Of a DNA stretch of 64,000 nucleotides, positions 32,232-55,034 are shown piece by piece (position 1 is the first letter of the stretch; every line of letters begins with the position of its first letter). The notes under the pieces are model-generated. The model did no database searches. It was not told the DNA's origin and worked only from the letters and a program-made list of their open reading frames with translations. The stretch is from a virus, in the IMG/VR virus record IMGVR_UViG_3300044675_005311, positions 8,653-72,652 of that record; one strand, 5' to 3'. The position numbers and the translations under genes are program-made.

Positions 32232-33242
32232 ATGGACAATACAATATCCTTTGACAACCAACCCGCGTTGGATGCGGACTACAATCCGTTACAAGAGAAT
32301 GTAAAGCAAAGACCTTACACAAGACCTAATGTAGAAGTTACCGATGCTACACCAATAGCCGAACCCGTGTTCACACCCCCATCGTTTGATGAATTACAAA
32401 ATGGGTTTGAGGCGGATATGAATGGTAGTGGTGCAAAGACGGACGATAGGACGGCTTGGGGTTTGAACGATGATGATGTTTCAAGCGCGAACCCGTATGT
32501 AGAGAATTTGGATAAGAAAGACCAACGCGCAGCCTCCGCTGCGTTAACCGATGCCGTGCTTGATGGCTACTCGCAACTAAACGGATTCGGAAACAAGTTG
32601 GTTCAATTCGACCCCGCTAAGTTTGAAGAAATGATGCGTAAAGGGGAAATTGACCCCAACATCGCGTTGCCCGTTAATGGCCAAGAAATAGGGATTCTTG
32701 ATTACATCAATGAGTACAATTCGCAAACGGCGGAAGTAATTAGCGTTTCCCAAGAATTTAAGGACAAAGTTCGTCCCGTAATGATTCGGGTAATGATGAA
32801 GCGCGGTATCGGTATGACCGATGAGCAATTACTCGCTTACTATTTCGGTGTCGATATGTTAACCAAGGGTGCTATGATTTACGGATTGCGTAAACAAAAC
32901 GCCTCGTTGATTGAAACACTTAAAGAAATGAGTAGCGGTTATACCCGACCAAGTACTCCCCCGCCCGCGCGTGAAAGTCAACCCACCCAACCTACATACG
33001 AAGAACCCGCGCCACAACCCCGTCAAGAAGCGAAGTCCGAGCGTCAATATGTAGAACCCGAAGAGGTGCAAGTGATTAAAGAAGAACCCGTACAAGATGC
33101 GGTAGTCGTTGATGAGTCAATTAGAAAAGCCCGTCAAAGACGACCCGCGCCACAATTCGGCGATACCGCTATTTTGTCGCAAATGGAAGATATTGCAAGT
33201 GGTAAAGTCAAAGGCGCACGAGGACGGAGGAAGAAAGAATGA
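32232..33242 (+). CDS. Hypothetical protein coupled to packaging ATPase
   Basis: ATGA overlap with ATPase; acidic N-terminus, Pro-rich C-terminus. Confidence 0.7.
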   Translation: MDNTISFDNQPALDADYNPLQENVKQRPYTRPNVEVTDATPIAEPVFTPPSFDELQNGFEADMNGSGAKTDDRTAWGLNDDDVSSANPYVENLDKKDQRAASAALTDAVLDGYSQLNGFGNKLVQFDPAKFEEMMRKGEIDPNIALPVNGQEIGILDYINEYNSQTAEVISVSQEFKDKVRPVMIRVMMKRGIGMTDEQLLAYYFGVDMLTKGAMIYGLRKQNASLIETLKEMSSGYTRPSTPPPARESQPTQPTYEEPAPQPRQEAKSERQYVEPEEVQVIKEEPVQDAVVVDESIRKARQRRPAPQFGDTAILSQMEDIASGKVKGARGRRKKE

Positions 33243-34051
33243 GAGAACCGCTATTAGGGGTTGCGGTTGGCCGTAAGGGCGTGGGCAAGTCTTGGACTAC
33301 CGACAAACTTATTGCCAATTATGTGTCGGGAAACCCCGCTAGTGGTATCTTAGGGCGTAAAGCGTTAATACTAGATGTTAACGATGAATATACCCACATT
33401 AAGGGTATAGCAATTAAAGACTTGATTCGTTTTTCCGTACACCCAATGGTGGAGGCTAGAAGGGTGCGACCTTTTCATCCTAACGGAAAAAAGATGACTT
33501 TGGATGACCTCGCCACTACGTTAAATATAATTCTAGACACATTTAGTGGTGGGTTGTTATTGATTGAAGATATTAACCGATTTGTAAGCGATATGATGCC
33601 TCAAGATTTAATGGGTGCTATCGCAACAAACCGACATAGGGATTTGGACATTATTCTCCACTATCAAGGTATTGGTCGTATAGGGCCGAAGGTGTGGCAA
33701 AACATCAATTGGTTGCGTTTCCATAAAATTACGGAAAGTTCCAAAAGACACCAACGTAAATATGAAGACAAATATGAGTTAATTCGTATTACCGAAATAA
33801 TGGTCGACACTCAATATTTTGGTGGCAATGAAAGATTCTACCAATATGTAGATTGTGAGAATATGAAGTTGCAAGGAAAGGTGGATGATAAAATGTTTAG
33901 CGACGCTTGTAAAGCGTATTTGAATGAGAATTATCGACGAACTATTACTCCAATGTTACAATTACGCGGTGTTGGTGGTAAAAAGCAATATACACACGAT
34001 TCCGCAATCACTCACGAGTTGGGTAGATTGAAGAAAATGTACTTAAAATAA
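33239..34051 (+). CDS. A32/P9-like FtsK-HerA genome packaging ATPase
   Basis: Walker A GRKGVGKS near the N-terminus, ILDVNDEY, Walker B LLLIED, NRHRDLDIILHYQ; 270 aa. Confidence 0.75.
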   Translation: MREPLLGVAVGRKGVGKSWTTDKLIANYVSGNPASGILGRKALILDVNDEYTHIKGIAIKDLIRFSVHPMVEARRVRPFHPNGKKMTLDDLATTLNIILDTFSGGLLLIEDINRFVSDMMPQDLMGAIATNRHRDLDIILHYQGIGRIGPKVWQNINWLRFHKITESSKRHQRKYEDKYELIRITEIMVDTQYFGGNERFYQYVDCENMKLQGKVDDKMFSDACKAYLNENYRRTITPMLQLRGVGGKKQYTHDSAITHELGRLKKMYLK

Positions 34052-34164
34052 AAGTACTTACACCCTATATTCTCATAGGGATAACTATGTTAAGTGAAAT
34101 TAAATTACATAGTTTCATTTTCGTTTATTGATTTCCGATACCATTACTACTAATTTATAGTAAA

Positions 34165-34172
34165 TAAATTTG
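34165..34172 (+). promoter_or_regulatory. -7 element TAAATTTG driving capsid operon
   Basis: TAnnTTTG upstream of 34227 and 34387. Confidence 0.65.
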
Positions 34173-34226: not shown

Positions 34227-34349
34227 ATGAAAACCGAATTAATCAAAGGAATTTTGTACGGAGTTACAATTACTATCGTGGGTGTGTTAGTCGCCAATCA
34301 AATTCAAAAGGCAATCGACAAAGCCCGTGTATCTACACCAAATCCATAA
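34227..34349 (+). CDS. 40-aa membrane protein preceding capsid gene (not in ORF track)
   Basis: MKTELIKGILYGVTITIVGVLVANQIQKAIDK...*. Confidence 0.7.
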   Translation: MKTELIKGILYGVTITIVGVLVANQIQKAIDKARVSTPNP

Positions 34350-34386: not shown

Positions 34387-35088
34387 ATGAGTATTCGCAA
34401 GTATCTCGCAGACGCACAAAGAAGTGCGCACGAGGGTTTCGTAAATGCCGACGGGTTCTTTGACGATGATTTGTCATTCACCGCAGGCGAAGATTTTATG
34501 TCCGCTAATGGCGGTGATGGGGCAATGAGTCCTATGGCCCCAACTTCTCAACCTTACATCATCACTGTAACCAACACGGGTTCGGCGGTAAGTAACTTTG
34601 ACATCCTTGGTTCTTATGAGTATATCAACTCGGCTAACTTTAACTCAAGTGGTAATTACGTAACGGGTGCTTTGACGATTTCGTCTTCTATCCCTAACGT
34701 AACTTACCAACAAGCGTTAAACCAATTTATGATTCAACCTTTTAGCGTAGGTTTGACTTATATTCAGTCTTCTTCACAGACTCAATTGTTGCAAACTTTA
34801 AGCGTTCAAACTAAAGACGCGAATGGTAATTTGGCTCAAAAGCCCCTCATCCCAACAATCGATCCGTACCAGCAACAGACGGGCGTTTTAGCGATGCGGT
34901 ATGGGTATAGAATTGATGGTTACACAAAAATTATCATCAACTCTATCTTGGCTTCTACCACTGTTAACTTCTACTTGTACCCAAGTGATAACATCAACTT
35001 GAGTCGTGGATTAGCGGGTAAGGCGGTATCTCGTGACTTCGCTTCCCCTGGAATCGTGCGTTCACAGCCCGTTAAATTGGTAGGTTAA
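34387..35088 (+). CDS. Putative major capsid protein (single jelly-roll-like) with acidic N-terminal propeptide
   Basis: Next to packaging ATPase; own promoter and strong terminator; high-expression codons; beta-strand rich; paralogs at 50231 and 54678. Confidence 0.6.
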   Translation: MSIRKYLADAQRSAHEGFVNADGFFDDDLSFTAGEDFMSANGGDGAMSPMAPTSQPYIITVTNTGSAVSNFDILGSYEYINSANFNSSGNYVTGALTISSSIPNVTYQQALNQFMIQPFSVGLTYIQSSSQTQLLQTLSVQTKDANGNLAQKPLIPTIDPYQQQTGVLAMRYGYRIDGYTKIIINSILASTTVNFYLYPSDNINLSRGLAGKAVSRDFASPGIVRSQPVKLVG

Positions 35089-35108: not shown

Positions 35109-35144
35109 AAAAAAGGGTGGGTGTATTTCGCCCACCCTTTTTTT
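35109..35144 (+). terminator. Intrinsic terminator
   Basis: AAAAAAGGGTGGG-N9-CCCACCCTTTTTTT. Confidence 0.85.
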
Positions 35145-35166: not shown

Positions 35167-35565
35167 ATGAATTTTTACGAATATATCGCAAAGACCAACC
35201 CTAGCGGGTCTAAAAAGGTCATCAACGAGTTCGGCTATCGTGTCGTAGATGGTAGACGAATGGGCGAAAATCTTCGTATGTTGGTAGCACAAGAAGGCGA
35301 ACCCGCATTACGAGCAATTGCCGAAATGCACCCCGATAAAGAATTACTACTAGAAGTATTCGCACCCAAGGATGGGGAATGCGGATGCAAAAAGAAAGGT
35401 GAGTCGTTTATGGGCGCGGATGGAGTTCTTTCAAGTGCCGTTTTGAGTAACAATCAACAGCAACAAGTGCAAAGCGATAGTACGAAACTCGCTATGCAAA
35501 CGAATGCAATGTTAATCGCGGCGACGATAATTATCGCCGCAGCAATAATCGTAAATAAGAAATGA
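35167..35565 (+). CDS. Virion membrane protein candidate
   Basis: FMGADG motif; C-terminal TM plus KK. Confidence 0.7.
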   Translation: MNFYEYIAKTNPSGSKKVINEFGYRVVDGRRMGENLRMLVAQEGEPALRAIAEMHPDKELLLEVFAPKDGECGCKKKGESFMGADGVLSSAVLSNNQQQQVQSDSTKLAMQTNAMLIAATIIIAAAIIVNKK

Positions 35566-36182
35566 CAAACAATATAGCACCGAATGATGTCTATGCAATT
35601 ACGGCATTGACTATTGATAGCCGTCCCAACGATGTGGTGGCTATTATTCGTAAACACGGGGTAATGTTACCAAACAACCCAAGCACTAAGCAAATTGAAA
35701 CCGCATTTGGTTCTTTATTGACAAAGAGTGAAGGATTCCGTAAAGACTTTGGGGTTTTGGCTTCGGAGGTTGCAAGTGAGGGGTATTCCAATCTTGTTGA
35801 TGATTTGCCATCGGGTAAGGGAATTGCGACTACGCCATCGAACCAATTGACATTAAATAATATCCCAACGAACATCACTTCTACGGGGCGTGCTTCTACC
35901 ACGGGTGATGAGGGACGTACAAGAGGGAGATTCGGTTCGTTTTTATCAAGCGTATTCACCGCCGACACAATTCAAAACTTGATTAACACGGGTTTGAATG
36001 TATGGTCGGTCAAGCAAACGGGTCAACCCGCTAACTTGGTGAGTGGCGACTTGAATACGGGTCGTGACCAATTGAACCAACCACCACCAACTAAAGGTAC
36101 GAGTACCACAACGATGGTATTAATCGGTGTGGGTGCGCTTGTATTAATTGGTGTTGCCGTTTACTTCTATAAAAAGAAATAA
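35562..36182 (+). CDS. Virion membrane protein candidate
   Basis: C-terminal TM VLIGVGALVLIGVAVYFYKKK. Confidence 0.7.
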   Translation: MTNNIAPNDVYAITALTIDSRPNDVVAIIRKHGVMLPNNPSTKQIETAFGSLLTKSEGFRKDFGVLASEVASEGYSNLVDDLPSGKGIATTPSNQLTLNNIPTNITSTGRASTTGDEGRTRGRFGSFLSSVFTADTIQNLINTGLNVWSVKQTGQPANLVSGDLNTGRDQLNQPPPTKGTSTTTMVLIGVGALVLIGVAVYFYKKK

Positions 36183-36565
36183 TGAGTCAGAGAGCGGGTC
36201 AAGGTGAGTTCGTAAATTCAATAGATATAATTGAAGCCTTGAAAAATAAAAATCCATCGCCACGCAATAGTATGAAAGCGCGGTTACTCAAAGATTTTGG
36301 AACTAAAGGAATGCTTGGTGGTTTTGGTGGTTCTAAAGGCGATATTATCGATGTCGATGTACTCGATGGGGGCAATAAAGTCTATACCTTTAACACAAGT
36401 ACGGGAAAAAAAGATTTGGCATTAACTATTGGTACGGATGTGGAATTGATTTTAGATGAACCTAAAAAAGAAATAGTGACCAAAGAACAAAAAGGCGGTG
36501 TGTTGTTTTATGGCGCACTTGCCGTATTGGGTTACATCGTATATAGAGTTTTAACAACAAAATAA
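36182..36565 (+). CDS. Membrane protein
   Basis: C-terminal TM; TAATG coupling. Confidence 0.7.
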   Translation: MSQRAGQGEFVNSIDIIEALKNKNPSPRNSMKARLLKDFGTKGMLGGFGGSKGDIIDVDVLDGGNKVYTFNTSTGKKDLALTIGTDVELILDEPKKEIVTKEQKGGVLFYGALAVLGYIVYRVLTTK

Positions 36566-37642: not shown

Positions 37643-37927
37643 ATGAGTATGGTAAGTGCAAATCGTCTATGGAAACAAAGTGGCTCTAATTTGCCATTTA
37701 AAGATTGGTTGGAACGCGAAAAAGCCAAGGGAGAGTTTATTCCTAACATCCAAGCGCAAGAAGAATACAACAACGCGGATGGTGACAACACCACCAACGG
37801 GGATTCTAGCGACTTCTTTAAGGACAAACTACAAACGGGTAGCATTTTCGGTAAGAACCTATTAATCATTGGCGCATTAGCAATTGGCGTTTATTTTATT
37901 TACAAGACATACAAAAAAAATGCTTAA
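37643..37927 (+). CDS. Membrane protein
   Basis: YNNADG motif; C-terminal TM. Confidence 0.7.
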   Translation: MSMVSANRLWKQSGSNLPFKDWLEREKAKGEFIPNIQAQEEYNNADGDNTTNGDSSDFFKDKLQTGSIFGKNLLIIGALAIGVYFIYKTYKKNA

Positions 37928-38129
37928 AAAGAAGGACATAGTGACCCTATTAGCCGTAACGGCCGTTTTGATAGTTATCTATTCAAATAGGGGAACTTTG
38001 AACCCTAGTAAAGCACCCTTGGATGCCGATAAAGGAACGGACGATGCAATTACCCGCGCATTGAACAAATTAAAAGTTGGTGGTGTGGATGTTAAAGAAA
38101 CACCCGAAGAGGTAAAACAAGCCGTATGA
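37920..38129 (+). CDS. N-terminal TM protein
   Basis: MLKKKDIVTLLAVTAVLIVIY. Confidence 0.6.
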   Translation: MLKKKDIVTLLAVTAVLIVIYSNRGTLNPSKAPLDADKGTDDAITRALNKLKVGGVDVKETPEEVKQAV

Positions 38130-38914
38130 AATACAAAGTAACCACGGACTATGCCCCCCTCACACTTTTAGTGAAAATCACTACGCCAAAAGCGGAGAAG
38201 ATTCATTTGCGGGTATATGATGCCTCAAACCCCGAACGTAAATTTACCGAAAGGTGGAAAACCATTACGGGCGAAGAAACTTTTCATATTCGTATGCCAC
38301 TTACACCCGAAATTGCGGTTGTAGAGGCTTATAGCGATAGAATGGGGCAAGGTGTAAAGAAAGATGCGGAAACGTCTTTTAGCATAACCTCCGTGTCTAA
38401 AGCACCACTAGAGCGAAGGATTGACCTTGGCGATATTGGAAATGCACAAATAAGAAATTTCGTTGACTTTGCTCAAAAGTTTTGTTTCAATGCGGGTACA
38501 CTTGCAACGGACACAACGTATCAAAGTGACGATGGCAATTATTTTATCAACTACGTGAAAAACATCGTTGGTAACAATGGCCAAATATTAACCACCCCCG
38601 CCCGTATCGGACGGAAGAGTGGAATGATTCAAGTAGCAAAAACTTCGTTTGACAAATTCACTATCCCTATGCGGATGGCAATTTTATTACACGAGTTCTC
38701 GCATTTTTACTTGAACGAGAAAATTGATGATGAAATGGAAGCGGACTTGAACGGCTTATTGATTTACCTAGGACTTGGTTATCCAAGGATTGAGGCTTAT
38801 CAAGCGTTCCTAGAAACTTTCAAAGAGAAACCAACCCAACAAAACAAAGCGCGTTACGACTTGATTAACAAGTTTATAAACGACTTTGAAAAAATGAACA
38901 TCGTAATACAATAA
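38126..38914 (+). CDS. Zn metallopeptidase (HExxH)
   Basis: AILLHEFSH...EMEAD (M48/M78-like). Confidence 0.75.
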   Translation: MKYKVTTDYAPLTLLVKITTPKAEKIHLRVYDASNPERKFTERWKTITGEETFHIRMPLTPEIAVVEAYSDRMGQGVKKDAETSFSITSVSKAPLERRIDLGDIGNAQIRNFVDFAQKFCFNAGTLATDTTYQSDDGNYFINYVKNIVGNNGQILTTPARIGRKSGMIQVAKTSFDKFTIPMRMAILLHEFSHFYLNEKIDDEMEADLNGLLIYLGLGYPRIEAYQAFLETFKEKPTQQNKARYDLINKFINDFEKMNIVIQ

Positions 38915-38916
38915 CA

Positions 38917-39378
38917 ATGGCGGTAACAACTTGGAATATAGCACCCGACTACGACCAATGGGGTAGTGACACTTGGTGGAAATGTGACGAATGGATAGCG
39001 TGGCACAAACGCTTGAAAGAACATTTTGGCTCGGAAAGGGCTAAACTTATTTTTAACTATGCTTACGCCCAAGGTTCGGAATTTTCGGGTCATCGTGATT
39101 GTAGAACTTTCAATAGTGCATTTCGTAAATACGCGAGAGAAGAAGGTTTAGACACTTACGCGAGTGTTACGATTCCTATTTTACCACAAATATTGAATCT
39201 TACGGGTAGTGGTCTTGAATTGCTTGATGACACATCAAATGTTGTATCGGGTATTGGTGAGAGTATTGGGAGTATATTCGGTGGCAATGGCAAAACATTG
39301 AAAGTAATTATTTTTGGCGCATTGGGTTTGTCGGTTGGATATTTAATGTATCGTGGTTATAAATTGGTAAACAAATGA
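38917..39378 (+). CDS. Membrane protein, Trp-rich N-domain
   Basis: C-terminal TM. Confidence 0.7.
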   Translation: MAVTTWNIAPDYDQWGSDTWWKCDEWIAWHKRLKEHFGSERAKLIFNYAYAQGSEFSGHRDCRTFNSAFRKYAREEGLDTYASVTIPILPQILNLTGSGLELLDDTSNVVSGIGESIGSIFGGNGKTLKVIIFGALGLSVGYLMYRGYKLVNK

Positions 39379-39560
39379 ACGAGAATACAAAAACAATATT
39401 GACTTATGTTTCGCTTGGATTAGTAGTAGGTATTGGCGGTGCGGTTTTGTATCGTAGATATAAAATCAAAAAAGGACAATATCAATCAAACGCAAGTACT
39501 AACAAGTTGGATGCGGAAATGGAAGCGTTGTTCAAAAAAATTGAGGAGGTTAAAAAATGA
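39375..39560 (+). CDS. Small TM protein
   Basis: N-terminal TM plus RRYK. Confidence 0.65.
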   Translation: MNENTKTILTYVSLGLVVGIGGAVLYRRYKIKKGQYQSNASTNKLDAEMEALFKKIEEVKK

Positions 39561-40072
39561 AAATCAATAAGAAGTACATATACCCTTTAATCGCCGTCGC
39601 TATTGCGGGTGGCATTTTTTTGTTGGTGACTAAAAAGAAACCCAAAAGTGGTGGCAATGGTAGTACACCGCCCGAACCCCCACAAGATGCTAGTGAAATT
39701 AGTGCGGAACAAAAGAAAATTGATGCGCCTTTAAACACAATATTGGCTAATAAAAATGCCAATGTGCTTATCAAAAACAAAAAGATATTGTCTAAAATTC
39801 CAAATGCAAAGGGTAGATATTCACCTTATGTGAATGATGGTTTTGTAGAGAACATATATGCGAGTGTGGCCAATGCAAATACATTGATAGGTACGGCGGT
39901 TGGTGCGGTGAACGATAAGGGTTCAACAATCAATCCAAGTACAAATAGACCTTTTGTATGGGTGCAAGTTAAATTGTCAAAAGCGGTGTTTGACGCGTTT
40001 CAAGAACAAAGAAGTTTTTACGAACGCGCCGATGAAACCGCATATTTTAGAGAGGACGTAATCAAATTATAA
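39557..40072 (+). CDS. N-terminal TM protein
   Basis: TM plus KKK; soluble domain. Confidence 0.7.
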   Translation: MKINKKYIYPLIAVAIAGGIFLLVTKKKPKSGGNGSTPPEPPQDASEISAEQKKIDAPLNTILANKNANVLIKNKKILSKIPNAKGRYSPYVNDGFVENIYASVANANTLIGTAVGAVNDKGSTINPSTNRPFVWVQVKLSKAVFDAFQEQRSFYERADETAYFREDVIKL

Positions 40073-40073
40073 T

Positions 40074-40748
40074 ATGAAAATTGATAAAAACATAAAATAC
40101 GCTTTGTATTTCGGTGGTGCATTACTTGCAACTTATGTAGTAATAAAACTAGTACAAAATGCCAAAGGTGGTGATGGTGATGCCGATGCTACACCCACGC
40201 CCGAAACACCAACTACACCTAAAAAGATGGGATTAACCCCATTACAAATCAAACAAGAAGAGTTACAATCTTTGTTGGGTTTTGTAGGGGCGGACGTTGA
40301 CCACATTATTGGGAAAAACACCATTTCGGCTTATAACAAGTTGAACTTGGGATTGGGAATTACCCTTTCTCAAACTACGCCTATATCCGATTTGCAAAAA
40401 ATCATCGACACTATCGTTGCCAAAAATAGAAGCGCAAAAGCAAATGCAACGGGAACGGCTTTAAGACAACGCTCGGCGGATATGGTACAAGCGTGGTCAA
40501 AGAACCCAACGGGTGTTTTGAGTGCATTGAGAACAACTAAATTGATTTTGGTGAACTTGGATAAGACAACGAACAAATACGTTGCCACGGCTCAAGCATA
40601 CACTTATAGCCCTAGCGATAAATTCACTAGAGCGCAGTTGGGTGTACTTAGCCAAGCGGTAGGTTTTAACCAACCTTGGTATATCGTATTCAAGAATAGT
40701 AACGGAACAACATTGTTAGCAAATCCAAACGATTGGATTATTAAATAA
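40074..40748 (+). CDS. TM protein with peptidoglycan-binding-like domain
   Basis: LQSLLG...VDHIIGKNTISAY resembles PG_binding_1. Confidence 0.55.
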   Translation: MKIDKNIKYALYFGGALLATYVVIKLVQNAKGGDGDADATPTPETPTTPKKMGLTPLQIKQEELQSLLGFVGADVDHIIGKNTISAYNKLNLGLGITLSQTTPISDLQKIIDTIVAKNRSAKANATGTALRQRSADMVQAWSKNPTGVLSALRTTKLILVNLDKTTNKYVATAQAYTYSPSDKFTRAQLGVLSQAVGFNQPWYIVFKNSNGTTLLANPNDWIIK

Positions 40749-40755
40749 AAACGAA

Positions 40756-41340
40756 ATGGAAATAGATGTATTTTACCAAAACGACGATATGGCCTTTGGC
40801 TTTACGGGTGACGAAAAGCCAATGAATGACGATTATGCGTTCGCAAAAAACGCGATTGACGGATTCGTTGATGTAGACTATTCGTATGCTAATGGTGGGC
40901 CATTTAAACAAAGCGGATTCAACGATGTAAGCGATAGCGTTAATGCTACGGGTCGTGAAGGAGAAGTTGAAAAGTGGTGGCCATTAACGGATGCCGATAA
41001 AAAGGATTGCAAAGTCTTGGAGGGTAAAATGACCGCATTGCAACGCACGATTGCCACCGAAGAAAAGAATATGAGTACTTATAAGGCGGGTGATAAGCGT
41101 GTTAAGCAAGAATACTTGAACCTTTATAAGAAGCGTTTGGATTTTTTTAAGACGGCTTACGATAATGCGGGTTGCGAACTTGCAAAGACGGAAGCGGAAA
41201 ACAAAGAGTTCGATAAGTTATTGAGCCAAGTAACGGGTTCAACCGATAATTCTAAAACGGGTACATACGTCCTTGTTATTGGCGGTGTGTTGGTTTTGGG
41301 TATCGTAGGATTCCTAATGTATAGAAAGTTTAAAAAATAA
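40756..41340 (+). CDS. Membrane protein with acidic N-terminal motif region
   Basis: YSYANGG, VNATG; coiled coil; C-terminal TM. Confidence 0.7.
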   Translation: MEIDVFYQNDDMAFGFTGDEKPMNDDYAFAKNAIDGFVDVDYSYANGGPFKQSGFNDVSDSVNATGREGEVEKWWPLTDADKKDCKVLEGKMTALQRTIATEEKNMSTYKAGDKRVKQEYLNLYKKRLDFFKTAYDNAGCELAKTEAENKEFDKLLSQVTGSTDNSKTGTYVLVIGGVLVLGIVGFLMYRKFKK

Positions 41341-41341
41341 G

Positions 41342-42133
41342 ATGATGAAATTGACTTGGACAAATACGGAGTGGGACAACTTTAGTGGTGTCGCCTCACA
41401 AGATAACTTATTGATGCTTAATGCGGGTAATGACTTTTTAAACGCCACGGGTGACAATACAATGTTGGACGACAAGGAAATCAAACGTAGGATTAATAAT
41501 TTGAATCCGTTGGCTAAAAAAGATACTAAATGGAACATAGTTACCGACCCTACCCAAACTCAAATTAATGGTGCAAAAGACTATTATAACGGGATATTAA
41601 AGTATGATGCAAAAACGTCTTTGGATGTTTTAAATTCATTGTTGGAAAAAGCCAACTACGAAAAAGTACAATGGCAAAACCAAGAAAATACGGGTAAAGA
41701 CGGAATACGATATGCTAACTCGACCGATAAAAGTGAAATTAGCACCATTCAAAGCGCGGGTAAGGCTAAAGCGAATATAAAAGCATTGACCGATTATATC
41801 ATTCCCAATTTAGAAAAGGCTATTGCCCAAGCGGTTGCTCTTAAAGAAAAGGCCGATGCGTTAAAAGCGAAAGCCGAAGCGGATGCTAAAGCAAAAGCGG
41901 AAGCGGATGCTAAAGCAAAAGAAGAGGCGGATGCAAAAGCAAAAATGAAAGGTTTAACCGACCAATTGCTTACCGCTAAAACGCCCGAAGATAGAGCGCG
42001 TATTCAAGCGGAAATTGATGCGTTGGCGGGTAATGTGGCAAAAACAACGGGAACGTCTAAATTAGTTATTTATGCGGTTGCGGGACTTGCTATCATTGGA
42101 GTTGCTTATATGTTGTTAAAAAGAAAAGCGTAA
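41342..42133 (+). CDS. Membrane protein with AKAKAEAD repeats
   Basis: WDNFSG, FLNATG; C-terminal TM. Confidence 0.7.
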   Translation: MMKLTWTNTEWDNFSGVASQDNLLMLNAGNDFLNATGDNTMLDDKEIKRRINNLNPLAKKDTKWNIVTDPTQTQINGAKDYYNGILKYDAKTSLDVLNSLLEKANYEKVQWQNQENTGKDGIRYANSTDKSEISTIQSAGKAKANIKALTDYIIPNLEKAIAQAVALKEKADALKAKAEADAKAKAEADAKAKEEADAKAKMKGLTDQLLTAKTPEDRARIQAEIDALAGNVAKTTGTSKLVIYAVAGLAIIGVAYMLLKRKA

Positions 42134-42399
42134 TGACACAAGATTTTGAAGCATTTTTTGCAAACACGGGTGTTGACGAAGCGAAATTCGCCAACGATGT
42201 AGCCACGGCCAAAACTTTCGGAATGAAGTTTGAAGAAACTTTTAAGCCCGAAATTTCTAGTCGAATTGAAGAAATCAAACAACGCTCGGAAAGGCTTAAC
42301 GCCAAAGAACCCGTTGTGTTAGGATTGCCAAATGGTTTTCTTTACACCCTAATCGGAACGGCTATTGTTTATTTTGCTTGGAAACTAATTTTAGACTAA
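42133..42399 (+). CDS. Membrane protein
   Basis: C-terminal TM. Confidence 0.65.
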   Translation: MTQDFEAFFANTGVDEAKFANDVATAKTFGMKFEETFKPEISSRIEEIKQRSERLNAKEPVVLGLPNGFLYTLIGTAIVYFAWKLILD

Positions 42400-43339: not shown

Positions 43340-43340
43340 T

Positions 43341-45629: not shown

Positions 45630-46505
45630 ATGAATATTATCTTTCAAATTGATGGGGGATTGGGTAAGTGCATTATGGCTACCGCCATTTGCGAAACAAT
45701 CAAAAGACATCACCCCGAAGCACGACTTATCGTCGTTAGCGGTTATCCCGAAGTGTTTATTAACAACCCTTGGGTTGATAGAACCTACGCTTTCGGCCAA
45801 CAACAATACTTTTACGAAGAGTTTATCGCCAATCAAGAGGTAAAGGTTCACGCCCACAACCCTTATTTGGAAACGGCTCACATTCAACGTAGCGAACACT
45901 TGCTTAAAACTTGGGCAAAAATGTTTGGCTACCAATACAATGGCGAATACCCGCAACTTTATTTCACCAATCGTGAGAAAGAGTTCTTCGCGCAAAAGTA
46001 CACGTCGGATAGGCCGATTATGGTGATTCAAACCAATGGTGGTGCGCCTAACCAAGAAACAAAGTATTCTTGGGCTAGGGATATTCCACAAGCGACGGCT
46101 CAAAAGGTAGTTGACCATTTTGCAAAAGACTATCTAGTATGTCACATTCGTAGGGACGACCAACCCGCATTGAATAATACTATTCAAGTTTCGGACAATT
46201 TCCGTTCTATGTGTGTGCTATTGATGGTGAGTAAAAAGAGGTTGTTGATTGATTCATTCGCCCAACACGCTTGTGCTTCGCTTCACCTACCATCCGTGGT
46301 ATGTTGGATAGGGAATAGCGAAGGTTGTTTCGGTTTTGACACTCACGTCAACATCAAATCAAACCCTTGGACAAAGAAACCCGAATTGCGTAATGCTTAC
46401 CTTGGGTTGTTCGATATTAGCGGAAATCCACTTGAAATTCCTTACACAAACGAATCTGAGATATTCGATGCGGATGTTTTAATTGAGGCCGTAGAGAAAT
46501 TATAA
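45630..46505 (+). CDS. GT9-like glycosyltransferase
   Basis: GGLGKCIMAT, YPEVFINNP, LLIDSFAQHACASL..PSVVCW. Confidence 0.7.
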   Translation: MNIIFQIDGGLGKCIMATAICETIKRHHPEARLIVVSGYPEVFINNPWVDRTYAFGQQQYFYEEFIANQEVKVHAHNPYLETAHIQRSEHLLKTWAKMFGYQYNGEYPQLYFTNREKEFFAQKYTSDRPIMVIQTNGGAPNQETKYSWARDIPQATAQKVVDHFAKDYLVCHIRRDDQPALNNTIQVSDNFRSMCVLLMVSKKRLLIDSFAQHACASLHLPSVVCWIGNSEGCFGFDTHVNIKSNPWTKKPELRNAYLGLFDISGNPLEIPYTNESEIFDADVLIEAVEKL

Positions 46506-47083
46506 TGGAAAACGAGGTTTGGAAAGACGTTGCCATTGAGCCTTGGGGTGAATTTTACCAAGTAAGTAATTTAGGTAGGGTTCGTTCAAAACAAAGAAGG
46601 GGTGTAAAAAAATATAAAAATGGATTAGAGCAAAAGTTTCTTGTAAAATCAAAAATTTTGAAAAATAGATTTTTACTTGGTTATGACCGAGTTAATTTTT
46701 ATCATAAAAACTATGGTTACAAGCATTATTTTGTACATAGAATCATATATATGACTTTTGTAGGCAATCCAATCAATAATAATATGCAAATCAATCATAA
46801 AAATGGAAACAAAAGTGATAATCGGTTGGAAAATTTAGAGTGGGTAACTCCGTCGGATAATATTTATCACGCATATAATAATGGTCTCATAAAAAAGAGA
46901 TTTGGTAAAGACAACTATGCGTCAAAAAGAGTTCAACAACTATCTATTGATGGGCAATTGATACAAGAATTTGACGCAATTAACGATATAAAAAGGATTA
47001 CAAAATTTGATGGTCATTATATTATTAGTGCATTAAAAGGTAGACGGGCAACCGCTTACGGATTCAAATGGAAATATATTTAA
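46505..47083 (+). mobile_element. Free-standing NUMOD4-HNH homing endonuclease
   Basis: EVWKDV..YQVSNLGRVRS, VHR, INHKNGNKSDNRLENLEW, TAYGFKW; more AT-rich than neighbours. Confidence 0.85.
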
Positions 47084-47086
47084 GAT

Positions 47087-47908
47087 ATGGTAGAAGAAAT
47101 ATTTTTTAACTCTAGCCTACCCCGAAGTGGGTCGACTTTGATTCAAAACATCCTTGCAACACGCGAGGATATGTACGCCTCCCCAACAGAAGGCCTTTTG
47201 GAGTTGTGGTATGGTGCGCGCGCCAACTACACGGAGAGTCCCGAATTTAAAGCGCAAGATTCCGAAACAATGAAACGAGCGTTTGCAAGTTTTTGTTATG
47301 AAGGTTCATTCGGGTTTTATCGTGCAATTACGGACAAGAAGTATGTAATAAGCAAAAGTAGAGGGTACGGAATTTATCGACCTTTCATCGAAACCTTTAT
47401 GGAAAACCCCAAGGTCATTTGTATGGTTCGTGACCTACGCGACGTATTTAATTCGTATGAGAAAATTTATCGCCGTAGCCCCGAACGACACGATGGAATT
47501 GTTAACCACGCGCAAATGACGGGAACGACGACACCAAAACGGATTGATGTATGGGCAAATAGCCAACCTATCGGCCTCGCTATTGAACGCTTATCGGAAA
47601 TCATACGCCAAGGGTACGATAGTAAAATATTGTTTGTTAAATACGAGGATTTATGTTTACATCCCGAAAATGAATTATTCCGCATTGAAGAGTACCTAGG
47701 TATTCCACACGCTAAATATGATTTTGACAATATCCCACAATTAACGAAGGAAGAGGATGGCGCGTTCGGCATAGAAGGTTTGCACACTATTAGACAAAAG
47801 GTCGAGCCGTTAATTAGCGATGCTAAACAAGTGTTGGGTCGCGATGTAACGAATTGGATTTTCGATAATTACAAATGGTTTTACGATTACTTTAGATATT
47901 CAAAATGA
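47087..47908 (+). CDS. Sulfotransferase
   Basis: SLPRSGSTL (5'-PSB), MVRDLRDVFNS (3'-PB), VKYEDL. Confidence 0.85.
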   Translation: MVEEIFFNSSLPRSGSTLIQNILATREDMYASPTEGLLELWYGARANYTESPEFKAQDSETMKRAFASFCYEGSFGFYRAITDKKYVISKSRGYGIYRPFIETFMENPKVICMVRDLRDVFNSYEKIYRRSPERHDGIVNHAQMTGTTTPKRIDVWANSQPIGLAIERLSEIIRQGYDSKILFVKYEDLCLHPENELFRIEEYLGIPHAKYDFDNIPQLTKEEDGAFGIEGLHTIRQKVEPLISDAKQVLGRDVTNWIFDNYKWFYDYFRYSK

Positions 47909-48270
47909 TAACACTAGGAAACAAAGTGGTGATGGTTCGTTTCAATACGGACTATCCCGAAAATTCGCCAAAGAAATGGCGCGTATTGGTCGGAGAAGTA
48001 ATCTTTGACGAAGAACTAAAAGTTGAAAGACTTCTTGAAGGTGAAGCGTATTTGGTTGACCACGTTAAATCAATTTGCGAAATGACTACTTGGAGTGGAA
48101 TTGTACCGAGCGGGGCGTTCAAACACCATTTATTGCTTATGGGCGAACACTTTGATGTTAGAGAAGATGAGCAAGGGCAATTGATGGCTATCGTTGGTAC
48201 TATCAAGCAAGAAGAGGCCAAAGAAGAACCTACGCCCGTAAATCCCGAACTAGAACTAGACGCGGAATGA
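47905..48270 (+). CDS. Hypothetical protein
   Basis: Coupled ORF; VRFNT...WRV. Confidence 0.6.
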   Translation: MITLGNKVVMVRFNTDYPENSPKKWRVLVGEVIFDEELKVERLLEGEAYLVDHVKSICEMTTWSGIVPSGAFKHHLLLMGEHFDVREDEQGQLMAIVGTIKQEEAKEEPTPVNPELELDAE

Positions 48271-48752
48271 TTTTAGCGTTCATCGGACAACCTACGAGTG
48301 GCAAAACCACGTTGTGCAAAGCATTTTTCGCTTGGATTAAAACCAAGGGTAATTTCCCCGTGCGTACTCATTACATTGACGGCGACAAACTTCGTTTGAT
48401 TTTCCAAAACAAAAATTACACACGCGAGGGTAGGATGCAAAACCTTACCCTTGCTTCTAATATCGCCAAATACGAAAAGTCTTTGAATGACATAGTAATA
48501 ATGGCGTTGGTGTACCCATACAAAGAGGCTAGAGAGCATTTGCGGTCGTTGGGTGAACACGTTGTAACTATTTACTTGGAGTACGATAAGAACGAAAATA
48601 GAGGCCGTGAATCGTTTTGGGTAGAGGACTTTGAATCACCATTAGGCGAAGAGAATGTTTACACGATTAACACGAGTGAAAATAATGAGAGTGAAGCCTT
48701 GCAAGAGGTAATTAACATTTACAAATTACATATTAGACATATAAAAAGATGA
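48267..48752 (+). CDS. cysC: Adenylyl-sulfate kinase
   Basis: GQPTSGKTT, IDGDKLR, YTREGRMQN, VYPY...R, FESP. Confidence 0.8.
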   Translation: MILAFIGQPTSGKTTLCKAFFAWIKTKGNFPVRTHYIDGDKLRLIFQNKNYTREGRMQNLTLASNIAKYEKSLNDIVIMALVYPYKEAREHLRSLGEHVVTIYLEYDKNENRGRESFWVEDFESPLGEENVYTINTSENNESEALQEVINIYKLHIRHIKR

Positions 48753-49093
48753 ATAAAAGATACGCATTGTTCGTAGGAAGATACCAAATGCCCCATAAGG
48801 GACATCGGTATTTGTTTGAAACTAAAATTAACCAAGGAATCCCCGTTTTGATAGCCATTCGGGATGTACCAACGGATGAAAAAAACCCATTCACCGCCGA
48901 AGAGGTGGAACGAATGCTACACAAAGAGTTTTTTGACCATTTAATTTCGGGAATGATGAAAATCATTGTTATTCCCGACATCATAGCAATATGCTATGGT
49001 AGAGAGGTTGGCTACTCAATTGAACACATTGAAGCACCCGAAGAAATTAAAGCCATTAGTGCCACCCAATTACGCAAAGAAGCGGGATTGTGA
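48749..49093 (+). CDS. Small HxGH nucleotidyltransferase (cytidylyltransferase-like; possible minimal ATP sulfurylase)
   Basis: GRYQMPHKGH, NPF, YGREVGY, ISATQLR. Confidence 0.7.
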   Translation: MNKRYALFVGRYQMPHKGHRYLFETKINQGIPVLIAIRDVPTDEKNPFTAEEVERMLHKEFFDHLISGMMKIIVIPDIIAICYGREVGYSIEHIEAPEEIKAISATQLRKEAGL

Positions 49094-49910: not shown

Positions 49911-50231
49911 ATGACTATCCCACAAAACATAAAAGAGGGTTTGATTATCGTCGGCATAGTTGTCGTCGGTCTTTGGATTTTATTGCCCAAAGCCAAAAAA
50001 GGAATCAACTCACCTAAAGTTGCGGATGACAAAAAGTTAAAAGACATCGACAACGCGAAAGTGGTGTTGGATGCTTACTTGAATGCGGTTGAAGCGGGAG
50101 AGCGTAAATCCGAATTAGACAAATTAAACTCAATCTTTGCCGATGAATATGGGTTGCGTGTTTTCCGTACAAAAGACGGAAAGTATGTAGCGCGTACATC
50201 TAGCGGTAAGGATGTATTAATGACGAAGTAA
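49911..50231 (+). CDS. N-terminal TM protein
   Basis: GLIIVGIVVVGLWILLPK. Confidence 0.7.
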   Translation: MTIPQNIKEGLIIVGIVVVGLWILLPKAKKGINSPKVADDKKLKDIDNAKVVLDAYLNAVEAGERKSELDKLNSIFADEYGLRVFRTKDGKYVARTSSGKDVLMTK

Positions 50232-50680
50232 TGGCAACCACTATTGCACCTATAATTAACGTGGCCACGTCGCCTATTGTAAGCGTTACGGGGGCAAGTG
50301 GTGTTTCATACGATAGCATTAACAATTCTATTGGTATGTCGATGTTCTATAAGGTCAATTCTATTTACCAATACGCGACTAACCTACAACAATTGCTATC
50401 GCCCGTTGTATTAAAGAAGTTTGACAAAGTAGGTAATAGACAAAATACGACCTTGCAAATGACGATTGACCCGTATCAAGACCAAGCATCGTTGACACAA
50501 GAAATGTTGGGTTACAATTACGCGTTTGATAGTAACAATGCTTTCTTTCCTTTTATCTTGGCAAATACGACTGTGAATTACCAAATCAAAGTAACGGAAC
50601 TCACGGCAAGTCAATTTTTATCGGGTGCTAGTAACTTCGATAACATCGAGTTTCTACAAGATTACATTAATGATTTTTAA
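50231..50680 (+). CDS. Paralog of putative capsid protein (minor capsid/penton candidate)
   Basis: Shares QLL...D..GN, TIDPYQ.Q and ILA.TTVN with 34387. Confidence 0.65.
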   Translation: MATTIAPIINVATSPIVSVTGASGVSYDSINNSIGMSMFYKVNSIYQYATNLQQLLSPVVLKKFDKVGNRQNTTLQMTIDPYQDQASLTQEMLGYNYAFDSNNAFFPFILANTTVNYQIKVTELTASQFLSGASNFDNIEFLQDYINDF

Positions 50681-51488: not shown

Positions 51489-54400
51489 ATGAGTACTAAC
51501 AAAACCATTGGTGGACTTTCCGTCCTATCAAGTGCTAATATAAAAGGATGCTATTCGTTACCCGTATGGAATAGTGATGCGGAAACTACACAAAGCGCGT
51601 GTATTACGGATATTCTAGCGGGTGTATCTTCAATTTATACATTAGGAAGCGGGACTTGTTCTTCGCTTCGTTGTGGGGTAAGCAACACCGCAAGTGGTAA
51701 TTACTCGGCATCGTTAGGAGGTCGTTTGAATTGCGCTACGGGAGTATTCTCTTCGGTTGTTGGTGGTTGTGCAAACAAGTCAATAGGTTACGGCTCTTCT
51801 ATTGGAGGTGGTGTAAATAATTGTGTTTCACTTGCTTGTTATTCAACAATTGGTGGAGGAGTAAATAATTTTATAAATATTCCATATGGAACTTCTACGG
51901 GGTCATTTATTGGGGCGGGTTCGGGAAATACCATTTGTTCAAATTGTGCTTTTATTGGCGGGGGGTCGGGAAATGTAGTAACAGGTAATGATGGTTTTCA
52001 AGTCATTACGGGGGGGCAAAATAATAATATTAACGCAGCGGGATATTCTTTTATTGGTAATGGATTGTCTAATAGCATTGCGGGTGGCGGATTAGGATTT
52101 AATGTTATTGGAGGGGGAAGAACTAATACCGCAAGTGGTGGGTATGCCCTAATTACTGGTGGTTTATCAAATACCGCCACGGGAATTTCGTCCGCTATTT
52201 TAGGAGGAGGAAGTAACACCGCAAGTGGTGCTTGTTCAATCGTTGGTGGTGGTAATATTAACTGTGCTACATCAAATTGGTCATCAGTAGTAGGAGGGGA
52301 AAATAACAGGGCTACGAATTCATTATCTTCTGTTGTAGGCGGATTTGGAAATATTGCATCAGGTTATGCAAGTTCAATAAGTGGTGGAGTAAGTAATAAT
52401 ACAACTTGTCATAATTCTTTTATTGGTAATGGTAAATTAAATACTGCAAGTAATTATTATGCAGCAGTAGTAGGAGGATGCGGTAATATAGCATCGGGTA
52501 ATAGTTCAATAATTGCAGGTGGTCGTTGTAACGTAACTACGGGGTCATTTTCGGGAATTTTAGCGGGTCAATTAAATTGCGCCACAAATTCTTGGTCATC
52601 GGTTTTAGGTGGTTGTAACAATTGCGCCACGGGAGTATTCTCATCGGTAGTTGGCGGTTGTGGAAACCAAGCCACGGGTTATGGTAGTTTTGTTGGGGGT
52701 GGTATAAGTAACTGCGCCACGGGTCAATGTTCAACTGTATTGGGTGGTTTTTGCTCTAAAGCCACGGGAGATTGTTCTACGGCATTAGGAGTTCAATCTT
52801 GTGCTACAAGTCTTAGTAATGCCTTTGGTATTCAAGCAAGGGCAACGGGATTTAATTCATTGGCAATAGGAACTTCTGCTAGTGCTACAAGTACGGGTGG
52901 TGTTGCTTTAGGTATTAATGTTCAGACCGCAAGTGGCATAGCAATAGGGTCTAGTGCGTTATCAAGCGGTTTGGGTTCAATTGCAATAGGTGAATCAACA
53001 GCATCAGGGGGTTGTGCGGTTGCAATAGGTGCTTTCAACTGTGCAACTGGACTAGGTGCATTAGTTATTGGAGGTAATTGCAACAAAGCCCTTGGTTCTC
53101 CATATAGTTCCGTAACGGGCGGTTTTTCAAATTGCGCGGTTGGTTGTTTGTCTTTCATTGGCGGTGGTCGTAACAATTTAGCGTGTGGCGTTTGTTCTTT
53201 CATAGGAGGTGGTCACGATAATACGACTACGGGTCGTGATAGCGGTGTGGCGTTTGGTCATACTAACATTGCGGGTGGATGTTGTTCGGCGGTTTTAGGA
53301 GGTAATAACAATTGCGCGTGTGGAATTAGGTCAATCGTTGTAGGAGGATTTTCAAACGCTTCTACTTGTGATGATTCGGTTGTTGTTGGCGGTTATGATA
53401 ATTTATCAAGTGGGGCGGAAAGTTTTGTAGGCGGTGGTTGTGTAAACCAAGCAACAAACAATTGGTCATCCGTTTTAGGCGGTTGTGTTAACTGCGCCAC
53501 GGGAGTATTCTCATCGGTAGTAGGTGGTTGTGGGAATAGAGTAAGCCAATATGGTGGATTTGTTGGAGGAGGTATTGGAAATAATGTGTGCCTTGTTTAT
53601 ACTGCTGATTTAGGACTAGGTAATCAAGGCGTAATTGTCGGTGGTAACAATAATACAGTTTGTAGATTTGGAGGAATCCTTACGGGGAATACTAATAGTG
53701 TATATAACGGAGGTGTTGTTTTACAAGGTTCAAATAATTTTGCACAAAATGGTGGAACAGTGTTAAGCGGGTATTCAAGTTGTGCAAATGGAGGTAATAG
53801 CATCGCAAATGGTCAATGTGTTTGTGCATTGGGAGGTTTTAGCATTGCAAATGGTTTATTGTCAACCGCAAGTTGTAATTATTCTTTTGCTTGGGGTAGA
53901 AATCAATCGGCAAGTTGTAAATCAATGGCTTTTGGTGGATTTAATACCGCGAGTGGTTGTTATTCTATTGCCTTAGGAGGCGCATTTTCACAAGGACATC
54001 AAGTAACGGGAAATTATAGTAATGTAGTTGGGGGTCAAAATAATTGCACTACAAATACATATACATCGGTATTAGGTGGATGTGGTAATACGGCATCGGC
54101 ATACGCTTCAAGTGTATTGGGTGGATATGGAAATATCGCTTGTGGTTGTTTTTCATCAACGATAGGTTCAAATTCTTTGGCTTACTTATATGGTCAAAAC
54201 GCTTTGGCAAGTGGTCAATTTAGTGCTAGGGGTGATGCTCAATCTTCTACATTGATAAGTCGTAGGTCGGCGGGTTCTTTAACAAGTGGTGCGACTATGA
54301 CACTTTCGTTGGATGGAACGGGTACTACCAACTTAATTATTCCACCAACGGGTAAAACTTGGGCGGTAAAAATTCAATATGCATCGAGAGTAGTAGGTGT

Positions 54401-54674
54401 TTCGGGTTCGGCTACGGGTGTTACCAACAACGATAGTAAAACACAAACACAAGAAATTGGTGTTAAAAACATCGGTGGCGTGACTACAATCCTTTCGGGT
54501 TCTCCTAACAATGGTATAGCCCTTGAAGACCCAAGTATGAACACGGCATCTATGAGTTATAGCGTAGGCGGAAGTAATGAAATAGTAATGACGTTCACCG
54601 CCCCAATATTTGCGGGTGGCGGAAGTTTGACTATAAAAGCGGTTGCAACATTAAGTATCACGGAGGTTCTATAA
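51489..54674 (+). CDS. Long Cys/Gly-rich beta-helical fibre
   Basis: Repeats S(S/F)(V/I)xGGxxNxAxG; NCATGVFSSVVGGC occurs three times. Confidence 0.8.
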   Translation: MSTNKTIGGLSVLSSANIKGCYSLPVWNSDAETTQSACITDILAGVSSIYTLGSGTCSSLRCGVSNTASGNYSASLGGRLNCATGVFSSVVGGCANKSIGYGSSIGGGVNNCVSLACYSTIGGGVNNFINIPYGTSTGSFIGAGSGNTICSNCAFIGGGSGNVVTGNDGFQVITGGQNNNINAAGYSFIGNGLSNSIAGGGLGFNVIGGGRTNTASGGYALITGGLSNTATGISSAILGGGSNTASGACSIVGGGNINCATSNWSSVVGGENNRATNSLSSVVGGFGNIASGYASSISGGVSNNTTCHNSFIGNGKLNTASNYYAAVVGGCGNIASGNSSIIAGGRCNVTTGSFSGILAGQLNCATNSWSSVLGGCNNCATGVFSSVVGGCGNQATGYGSFVGGGISNCATGQCSTVLGGFCSKATGDCSTALGVQSCATSLSNAFGIQARATGFNSLAIGTSASATSTGGVALGINVQTASGIAIGSSALSSGLGSIAIGESTASGGCAVAIGAFNCATGLGALVIGGNCNKALGSPYSSVTGGFSNCAVGCLSFIGGGRNNLACGVCSFIGGGHDNTTTGRDSGVAFGHTNIAGGCCSAVLGGNNNCACGIRSIVVGGFSNASTCDDSVVVGGYDNLSSGAESFVGGGCVNQATNNWSSVLGGCVNCATGVFSSVVGGCGNRVSQYGGFVGGGIGNNVCLVYTADLGLGNQGVIVGGNNNTVCRFGGILTGNTNSVYNGGVVLQGSNNFAQNGGTVLSGYSSCANGGNSIANGQCVCALGGFSIANGLLSTASCNYSFAWGRNQSASCKSMAFGGFNTASGCYSIALGGAFSQGHQVTGNYSNVVGGQNNCTTNTYTSVLGGCGNTASAYASSVLGGYGNIACGCFSSTIGSNSLAYLYGQNALASGQFSARGDAQSSTLISRRSAGSLTSGATMTLSLDGTGTTNLIIPPTGKTWAVKIQYASRVVGVSGSATGVTNNDSKTQTQEIGVKNIGGVTTILSGSPNNGIALEDPSMNTASMSYSVGGSNEIVMTFTAPIFAGGGSLTIKAVATLSITEVL

Positions 54675-54677
54675 TAT

Positions 54678-55034
54678 ATGCCCACCAAGGAAATAAATAT
54701 AAGTGTCACCAACACCCAAGCGTACACAACGCAAATTTCTATCTTTGGTGGGCCACAAGACCCGAATAAAAATAGTGTCAATGCGTTCACGTCTTACACT
54801 TGGGACACCAACTTAGTAAACTTTTCGGCAAACTATTCATTTACAATTGAATCTAAGCGTTCTTTTGAGCCAACATTCACAATCATAGAGGGAACTATGA
54901 GAAACTCTTTCCTAGGACTTGTGTATGGCTTAAATCAATTAAATATTGGTATGTTTTGGTACGACACGGCTAGTAGTACAATATATGCTAGTTCGGATGC
55001 GTTCGTATTTGGCAATTTGGTATTCCCCGTGTAA
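54678..55034 (+). CDS. Beta-rich structural protein, N-terminus resembles capsid first strands
   Basis: INISVTNT...ISIFG vs YIITVTNT...FDILG in 34387. Confidence 0.55.
   Translation: MPTKEINISVTNTQAYTTQISIFGGPQDPNKNSVNAFTSYTWDTNLVNFSANYSFTIESKRSFEPTFTIIEGTMRNSFLGLVYGLNQLNIGMFWYDTASSTIYASSDAFVFGNLVFPV

Follow-up and report, generated by a model that had tools for sequence, protein, structure and literature searches.

Prokaryotic viruses that combine a jelly-roll capsid with an internal membrane are known with genomes of about 10 to 44 kb. Thermus phage P23-77, classified with IN93 in the Matshushitaviridae (Helvetiavirae), is tailless, contains an internal membrane, and has single jelly-roll capsid proteins; its genes run in the order ORF13, ORF14, VP15, VP16, VP17. 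In PRD1 (genome of 14.9 kb; order P9, gpi, P20, P3) and PM2 (10.1 kb; order P9, P7, P2), an ATPase gene, a gene for a tiny membrane protein, and the capsid gene follow one another. Sphaerolipovirus genomes measure about 30 kb. SSIP-1, a tailless phage with a membrane and a halophilic bacterial host, resembles almost nothing in databases and is large for this type at 43,788 bp; its published descriptions give it a PRD1-type architecture with two capsid protein types (PMC6356626, PMC4958249). Here we analyze a window of 64,000 nucleotides, bases 8653-72652 of one 72,652-bp virus record (IMGVR_UViG_3300044675_005311), in which genes for a P-loop ATPase, a 40-amino-acid (aa) membrane peptide, and a 233-aa jelly-roll protein stand in a row. 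Coordinates are window positions unless another record is named. Genes of the + strand reach from the window start to 55034, beyond which a - strand block encodes RecT and a PD-(D/E)XK nuclease; features below are on the + strand unless stated otherwise. An initial annotation had attributed 33239-55034 to a large tailless, membrane-containing virus with a single jelly-roll capsid protein. That reading is supported, in that the jelly-roll fold holds and no large terminase subunit (TerL), portal, or HK97 family was found, and we consider it probable, though far from certain, for this uncultured lake-water virus.

The gene at 34387..35088 encodes the 233-aa protein, our candidate for the major capsid protein. 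It had been described as beta-rich and expected to form one jelly roll, and the AlphaFold model (AF2, alignment of 114 sequences) bears this out. An N-terminal helix (residues 3-15) and a disordered leader (16-42) precede a confidently modeled sandwich of the single jelly-roll type at about residues 53-205, with a mean predicted local distance difference test (pLDDT) of 84.6 and a predicted template modeling score (pTM) of 0.75. On this model, the fold is a single jelly roll. Searched against PDB with Foldseek, the model returned nothing at E ≤ 0.001; the top rows start at 1.1e-3, and capsid chains with a jelly roll, from picorna-like viruses, satellite tobacco mosaic virus (STMV), and cowpea mosaic virus (CPMV), make up most of them, mixed with a CBM16 module and TNF-family and C1q domains. 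Among the top BFVD rows are many giant-virus collagen/C1q proteins and some picorna-like capsids. The protein sequence matched nothing in Pfam, PHROGs, or PDB sequences, nor, by tblastn, in 50,697 phage records, and ESM Atlas gave only unnamed clusters at a score of 0.85, which is chance level. A set of 5.8 billion proteins, by comparison, holds 1,697 homologues at E ≤ 0.001, many of them on contigs of 45-100 kb, with 599 matches among 50%-identity representatives. To follow the genes of the block through relatives, we used tblastn on 55 IMG/VR loci found with the 233-aa protein, on contigs of up to 102 kb; since some of these loci are short contigs, misses include incomplete records. The jelly-roll gene is the best kept of the block, matched in 55 of 55 loci at a median identity of 61%. 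A TAnnTTTG element at 34165..34172, the only one that a motif scan showed there, lies in the gap before the 40-aa peptide gene, and a hairpin followed by a T run at 35115..35133, terminator-like by consensus scan only, lies just 3′ of the jelly-roll gene. We infer that the 233-aa protein is the major capsid protein.

The candidate genome-packaging enzyme, a P-loop ATPase of 270 aa, is encoded upstream at 33239..34051 and was matched in 53 of the 55 loci, always on the same strand and upstream of the jelly-roll gene. The initial annotation had called it A32-like. Its Walker A (GRKGVGKS) and Walker B (LLLIEDIN) motifs can be read directly, but Pox_A32 was not matched. The sole Pfam match of the protein is to the DUF87/HerA central domain (E 9.9e-5, 23.0 bits against a cut-off of 23.2). 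When 25 members of the ATPase family were compared with Pfam, 12 families were matched, among them AAA_22 by 20 members, DUF87 by 15 (best E 1.1e-5), and Zot by 3; Pox_A32 was matched by 0 of the 25, and also by none of five whole records at E ≤ 0.05, with a control that matched 3 of 14 genomes. The profile of these 25 sequences does align with the putative packaging ATPase of P23-77, ORF13, at 89.4% in hhalign (E 2.1e-6), over 156 columns that extend from Walker A beyond Walker B. A repeat gave 87.4%, against 1.5% for the window's AAA_5 protein and 4.4% for its APS-kinase-like protein as controls. A homologue of the Helvetiavirae-type packaging ATPase is thus present by profile match. The same profile reached 7.4% with PRD1 P9 and 34% over 44 columns with PM2 P9, and it aligned at 60%, over 48 columns after Walker B, with the Zot-type ATPase ORF10 of Ralstonia phage Rs551. 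Zot-type genes are likewise retrieved by tblastn with the P23-77 ATPase as the query, and Zot occurs in 11-14% of the members of four neighboring ESM Atlas clusters. The ATPase had no match in PDB sequences or in the phage collection; its profile gave only P-loop-level rows against PDB sequences (ClpB, E 0.013; HerA, E 0.054), and no hydrophobic segment was seen in a Kyte-Doolittle scan. Because the P23-77 and Zot profiles match and Pox_A32 does not, the data support the sequence-based label of a small P23-77-like/Zot-like P-loop ATPase, not an A32-like one.

No terminase, portal, or tail gene had been recognized in the 64 kb, and this extends to the whole 72.6-kb record and four relatives of 84.7-102 kb, all four rated 100% complete by CheckV. 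In six-frame family searches of these five records, Terminase_6N, TerL_ATPase, Terminase_3, Phage_portal, SPP1_portal, and Phage_capsid each matched 0 of 5. PhageMin_Tail and Phage_sheath_1 also matched 0 of 5, with controls that matched 8 of 14 and 3 of 14 genomes; across the eight hallmark families, the controls matched in 1 to 8 of the 14. Capsid_NCLDV matched 0 of 5 as well, a search that is uninformative since its control matched nowhere. When every open reading frame (ORF) of the record of at least 200 aa was scanned with Pfam and/or PHROG, head or packaging families were matched only by the fibre described below and, weakly, by the ATPase, whose P-loop aligned with phrog_2666 at E 0.0027 (named "terminase large subunit"). 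A single unexplained protein (549 aa, 18065-19714) has the size of a portal; its model showed no portal, terminase, or capsid match, and no ORF of TerL size has a Walker A motif except the AAA_5 protein. These results point to the absence of a tail.

The lineage is large, and its description in the initial annotation as little known agrees with the empty searches of the deposited-phage collection; we found no description of such a lineage in the literature, where supplements of virome surveys could hold such contigs. Its records range from 72 kb to at least 132 kb. The 84.7-kb relative (G005) is collinear with this record and adds glycosyltransferases, FkbM methyltransferases, collagen-like proteins, and a 5,338-aa ORF. 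The largest member seen, a 132,486-bp contig (G001 C9) binned into a Sediminibacterium metagenome-assembled genome (MAG), is collinear with both genomes over about 3-124 kb and has an even G+C content of 0.30-0.35. Since the collinearity covers nearly the whole length and the G+C content is even, this contig is a virus genome of the same lineage and not an integrated prophage.

The jelly-roll family has further members. A 149-aa paralogue is encoded at 50231..50680 (BLASTP E 7e-7; family hidden Markov model [HMM] E 4.9e-10, profile positions 87-190). It is retained in G005 and in the 132-kb contig, and its neighbors, at the end of the module where the fibres lie, are two conserved proteins. 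One is a membrane-anchored protein of 106 aa (49911..50231, Kyte-Doolittle scan), a 48% identical homologue of which adjoins the paralogue in G005; the other, of 118 aa (54678..55034), directly follows the paralogue there. By analogy with PRD1 P31, the 149-aa paralogue may be a vertex (penton) protein. The gene at 54678 was also considered as a second partial paralogue of 34387, which is unsupported (BLASTP E 4.6, no match to the family HMM). This record, G005, and the 132-kb contig each have just two genes that the family HMM detects, the 233-aa gene and a paralogue of about 149 aa, at least about 15 kb apart. Elsewhere, two proteins have tandem domains, with two full matches each to the profile core (P0127, 397 aa; P0256, 456 aa), and in a third (P0194, 411 aa) an insert interrupts one of the two copies, so that the HMM matches it three times. 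A 102-kb IMG/VR record (L083) encodes a protein 86% identical to P0127 together with an ordinary 233-aa gene beside the ATPase; its paralogues, at 7424-7888 (154 aa) and 10001-11194 (397 aa, the tandem double), lie beside a glycosyltransferase. Tandem members such as these are of interest for the evolution of the double jelly roll.

Membrane proteins surround the jelly-roll gene. With the criterion of a 19-aa segment at a Kyte-Doolittle mean of at least 1.6, the 40-aa peptide encoded between the ATPase and jelly-roll genes (34227..34349) qualifies as a single-pass membrane peptide at 2.12, as the initial annotation had it. Another 25 ORFs that start within 25968-51037 pass, bringing the count to 26, and three more reach 1.42-1.57. 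The earlier figure of about 30 small transmembrane proteins therefore fits the whole gene array and not the range 33239-55034 for which it was given, since only 18 lie inside that range. Directly downstream of the jelly-roll gene, 35167..36565 encodes proteins of 132, 206, and 127 aa, each with a membrane anchor at its C-terminus; the first was matched in 51 of 55 loci. A membrane-anchored core protein of 94 aa follows at 37643..37927 (47 of 55 loci), and a run of small membrane-anchored proteins occupies 38917..42899, ending with an LEA_2/Ig-like one at 42378-42899 (LEA_2 E 1.2e-10); all were recognized in the Kyte-Doolittle scan. A 215-aa PAP2-superfamily phosphatase-like protein (30764..31411; Pfam PAP2 E 6.8e-10) is a core gene of the lineage, matched by tblastn in 49 of 55 loci. 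The 26 ORFs with hydrophobic segments and the conserved PAP2 gene are indirect signs of an internal membrane.

A soluble 262-aa protein with an HExxH motif (LLHEFSH) is encoded at 38126..38914; it has no Pfam or PHROG match and was found in 48 of 55 loci. It was tried as an alternative capsid protein and dropped because of the HExxH motif, which makes a protease more likely, and it is a candidate maturation metalloprotease. We searched for the motif aromatic-x-[NSG]-[AFM]-x-G, widened so that its third position may also be D. Among the 42 proteins encoded on the + strand between 28 and 51 kb there are 8 copies against 1.64 expected, and 0 of 500 shuffles reach 8; the other 78 proteins contain 4 against 3.97 expected. 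D stands at the third position in none of the 8 structural matches and in 2 of the other 4. Within 34387-42133, the sites fall in ectodomains of membrane proteins and in the leader of the capsid candidate, whose disordered stretch carries two. Because copies occur in the leader and the HExxH protein is conserved, these data suggest maturation cleavage in the structural module.

The initial annotation had also placed fibres on a spike base. The fibres hold up, while the base is conjecture. A 592-aa fibre or spike protein (43332..45110) matches PHROG 23837, 6002, and 4636, which are virion-structural and tail-spike families, at 3.9e-63 to 3.2e-45, and tblastn matches it in 80 phage records, mostly to annotated tail fibres and with marine phages among them. 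The second fibre, of 1,061 aa (51489..54674), is a Gly/Ser/Cys-rich repeat protein by sequence reading, with a weak YadA_head row below the cut-off (E 0.0012); in its place G005 carries the 5,338-aa ORF (52323-68339).

Put together, the stretch would be a morphogenesis module for an icosahedral, tailless particle with an internal membrane. As a single jelly-roll subunit, the 233-aa protein would form the shell, tethered to the membrane by its N-terminal helix and flexible leader unless these are removed in maturation, when the HExxH protein may cleave at the aromatic-x-[NSG]-[AFM]-x-G motif. About 25 small membrane proteins and the 40-aa peptide would populate a lipid vesicle beneath the shell. 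The 149-aa paralogue, with its 106-aa and 118-aa neighbors, may build the fivefold vertices that bear the 592-aa and 1,061-aa fibres. For the 270-aa ATPase we envisage the role suggested for PRD1 P9 and its P23-77 counterpart, pumping DNA through a vertex embedded in the membrane into particles that are already formed. A conserved 336-aa protein at 32232..33242 (no Pfam or PHROG match; 52 of 55 loci) is a candidate assembly or scaffold protein. Largely non-beta, it runs from an acidic N-terminus through a Pro-rich stretch to a basic C-terminus, and its stop overlaps the ATPase start.

The host is probably a member of the Bacteroidota, to which three weak lines point. The first is the placement of TAnnTTTG, which we take to be the Bacteroidota -7 promoter element: genome-wide, 17 of 87 copies lie in the 5.5% of the DNA that is intergenic, mostly 3-40 nt before starts and on the correct strand, although over the whole window the element is not enriched (74 copies against 82.7 expected). 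A Shine-Dalgarno-like core precedes only 15 of 120 ORFs, and the 132-kb contig was placed in a Sediminibacterium bin. Binning by itself gives no firm host, since the six MAG contigs with the gene fall into bins of unrelated taxa (Planktophila, Bathyarchaeia, Sediminibacterium, Chlamydiales, Ignavibacteria, and Legionellales). Beyond possible source runs, 13 runs from lake water or freshwater, dated 2016, 2024, and 2025, contain near-identical DNA (0.71-0.96 of sampled words); no RNA run was found among those containing it.

Elsewhere the record encodes several large proteins. Both record ends cut genes, CheckV rates completeness at 86%, and no terminal direct or inverted repeats were found in the 72,652 bp. 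Upstream of the structural genes, the family scan showed a 1,556-aa polyvalent protein with DUF5661 and ART-PolyVal (9586-14256), a 1,000-aa protein without any family (21833-24835), and a 384-aa protein with a RelA/SpoT domain (24796-25950); these three may be effectors carried in the particle. Between them, a 798-aa protein (14260-16656) reads as about 8 tandem copies of a module of about 90 aa with proline-rich linkers, and its sole family row is a weak CBM_26 of about 30 residues (whole-protein E 8.5e-7, no single stretch passing). An AAA_5 (MoxR-type) ATPase found in the family scan (16674-18065) adjoins the conserved 549-aa protein, which was found in 5 of 5 records and whose model (pLDDT 84.1) has weak NorD-VWA and integrin-type rows; the pair is retained in G005 and the 132-kb contig. 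The only tRNA of the window is a tRNA-Met (anticodon CAT) at 8344-8416. On the - strand, within the RecT/PD-(D/E)XK block, a 257-aa protein without a family match (58717-59490) has conserved counterparts in both G005 and the 132-kb contig. The whole record yielded no recognizable DNA polymerase, primase, or helicase family; it does encode an endolysin-like protein and a ParB-like gene. Glycosyltransferase and methyltransferase genes are numerous elsewhere in the genome. Inside the structural array, 45630..49093 is a variable island, each gene of which was matched in 1-3 of 55 loci: by Pfam, it holds family-less ORFs, an HNH/NUMOD4 homing-endonuclease-type gene (46505-47083) in a segment common to few relatives, and a sulfotransferase and an APS-kinase-like protein that span 47087-48752. 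A PAPS-reductase-type gene, part of the sulfation set, is cut by the contig start (L082 1-276).

Several observations weigh against a tailless virus with a shell of the 233-aa protein, and they support three other explanations to different degrees. The virus could be non-tailed or otherwise unusual with the 233-aa protein as a vertex, receptor-binding, glycan-binding, or decoration protein, and with a shell or envelope of unrecognized proteins. The jelly-roll matches are not specific: capsid chains score no better than CBM, HA70, C1q/TNF, and collagen-C1q proteins, so structure searches alone cannot say that the protein is a capsid protein. The extra paralogues of the 102-kb relative adjoin a glycosyltransferase outside the morphogenesis block, and a double form in that position weakens a simple capsid-only view of the family; the genomes are also rich in glycosyltransferases, methyltransferases, and sulfation genes. 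We nevertheless regard this explanation as unlikely. An accessory protein would have to be the best-kept gene of the block, sit exactly at the capsid-gene position of PRD1 and PM2, and be flanked by promoter-like and terminator-like elements of its own. Nor does the block offer another membrane-free beta-rich core protein, the rest being the PAP2, HExxH, ATPase, anchored, and largely non-beta 336-aa proteins.

Less likely still is a tailed phage (Caudoviricetes) whose genes for an HK97-fold capsid, portal, terminase, and tail have diverged beyond recognition or fall in the part that the record lacks. Very divergent hallmark versions may indeed escape family searches, the record is incomplete and cut at both ends, tail fibres like the 592-aa fibre occur in podoviruses and myoviruses, neighboring ESM Atlas clusters carry automatic Uroviricota labels, and the ATPase has its weak match to phrog_2666. 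But the eight hallmark families failed in all five records, four of them rated complete, while their controls matched, and the collinear 84.7-kb relative adds only glycosyltransferases, methyltransferases, collagen-like proteins, and a giant ORF. Within the record, the ORFs of at least 200 aa gave no head or tail match apart from the fibre and phrog_2666, the one portal-sized protein without an explanation does not model as a portal, and the AAA_5 protein is the only one of TerL size with a Walker A motif. We think it quite improbable that the stretch is a non-viral mobile element, such as a plasmid or an element of conjugative or secretion type, with the ATPase and membrane proteins as an apparatus for transfer or secretion and the jelly-roll protein as a surface adhesin. 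Polyvalent proteins of the ART-PolyVal and DUF5661 kinds are found in conjugative elements as well as phages, and both occur here together with the ParB-like gene; the ATPase resembles HerA/DUF87 and Zot, and membrane proteins are many. General Pfam and PHROG scans, however, turned up no relaxase, coupling protein, VirB4-sized ATPase, or integrase, whereas phage-type fibres, the endolysin-like protein, and the RecT and PD-(D/E)XK recombination pair are present. IMG/VR classes the 55 related contigs as viral, and the best known match of the ATPase is a virus packaging ATPase.

We therefore retain the tailless, membrane-containing virus with a single jelly-roll capsid protein as the preferred reading. 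A bolder proposal, which we make only tentatively, is that these genomes represent an undescribed lineage of high rank: large (72 to >130 kb) tailless membrane phages of freshwater Bacteroidota with a shell of one single jelly-roll protein, from a family that also has truncated and tandem-double members. If this is true, the family would preserve, sometimes within one genome, living stages of how a single jelly roll became a double one, and would allow a direct comparison of single and tandem-double forms. Such phages would have arrived on their own at genome sizes that, until now, only double jelly-roll viruses of eukaryotes have shown, the architecture would scale far beyond the known prokaryotic range, and a large share of the "unclassified" freshwater virome would not be tailed. 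Isolation and cryo-electron microscopy are realistic, since there are 1,697 homologues, 599 clusters at 50% identity, and 13 lake or freshwater runs to draw on.

How does the module compare with the described systems? Like P23-77, it has an ATPase gene, a small ORF, a known or (here) candidate capsid gene of single jelly-roll size, and membrane proteins downstream, and both genomes carry a PAPS-reductase-type gene. P23-77 differs in its genome of 17,036 bp and in its adjacent VP16 and VP17 genes; genomes of the present lineage, at 72.6 to at least 132 kb, are 4-8 times larger, and one 233-aa gene beside the ATPase with a 149-aa paralogue about 15 kb away replaces the side-by-side capsid pair. 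The 233-aa family reached only 0.1% and 0.7% with VP16 and VP17 in hhalign, and neither protein is among the 50 VIA rows listed in the fold search. The order of ATPase, tiny membrane protein, capsid (here jelly-roll) gene, and membrane proteins is the one annotated for PRD1 and PM2, with the 40-aa peptide in the position of PM2 P7 and PRD1 P20. PRD1 (Tectiviridae) and PM2 (Corticoviridae), both Bamfordvirae, have capsid proteins with a double jelly roll, 395 and 269 aa long. In this lineage, by contrast, the ATPase gene is followed by a gene for one jelly roll, tandem two-domain paralogues occur in some relatives, and the 233-aa family shows no profile similarity to PM2 P2.

SSIP-1 is smaller, the genomes here being 1.7 to 3 times its size. 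Neither the 233-aa protein nor the ATPase had a tblastn match to it in the phage collection, which includes SSIP-1, and the ATPase and jelly-roll profiles reached at most 6% in hhalign (gp40), at Walker A only, against 11 SSIP-1 proteins. The assembly ATPases of filamentous phages (Zot/pI type) share a motif block after Walker B, of 48 columns only; unlike in those phages, with genomes of 5-19 kb, the ATPase here has no hydrophobic segment and belongs to a 72-kb genome with fibres and a jelly-roll gene. Since it has no pair of capsid genes, no detectable capsid sequence relation, and a different genome size, the lineage is a member of no described family. Judged by sequence, its module is nearest to the P23-77 group in its ATPase and its protein of capsid size, and nearest to PRD1 and PM2 in its local gene order.

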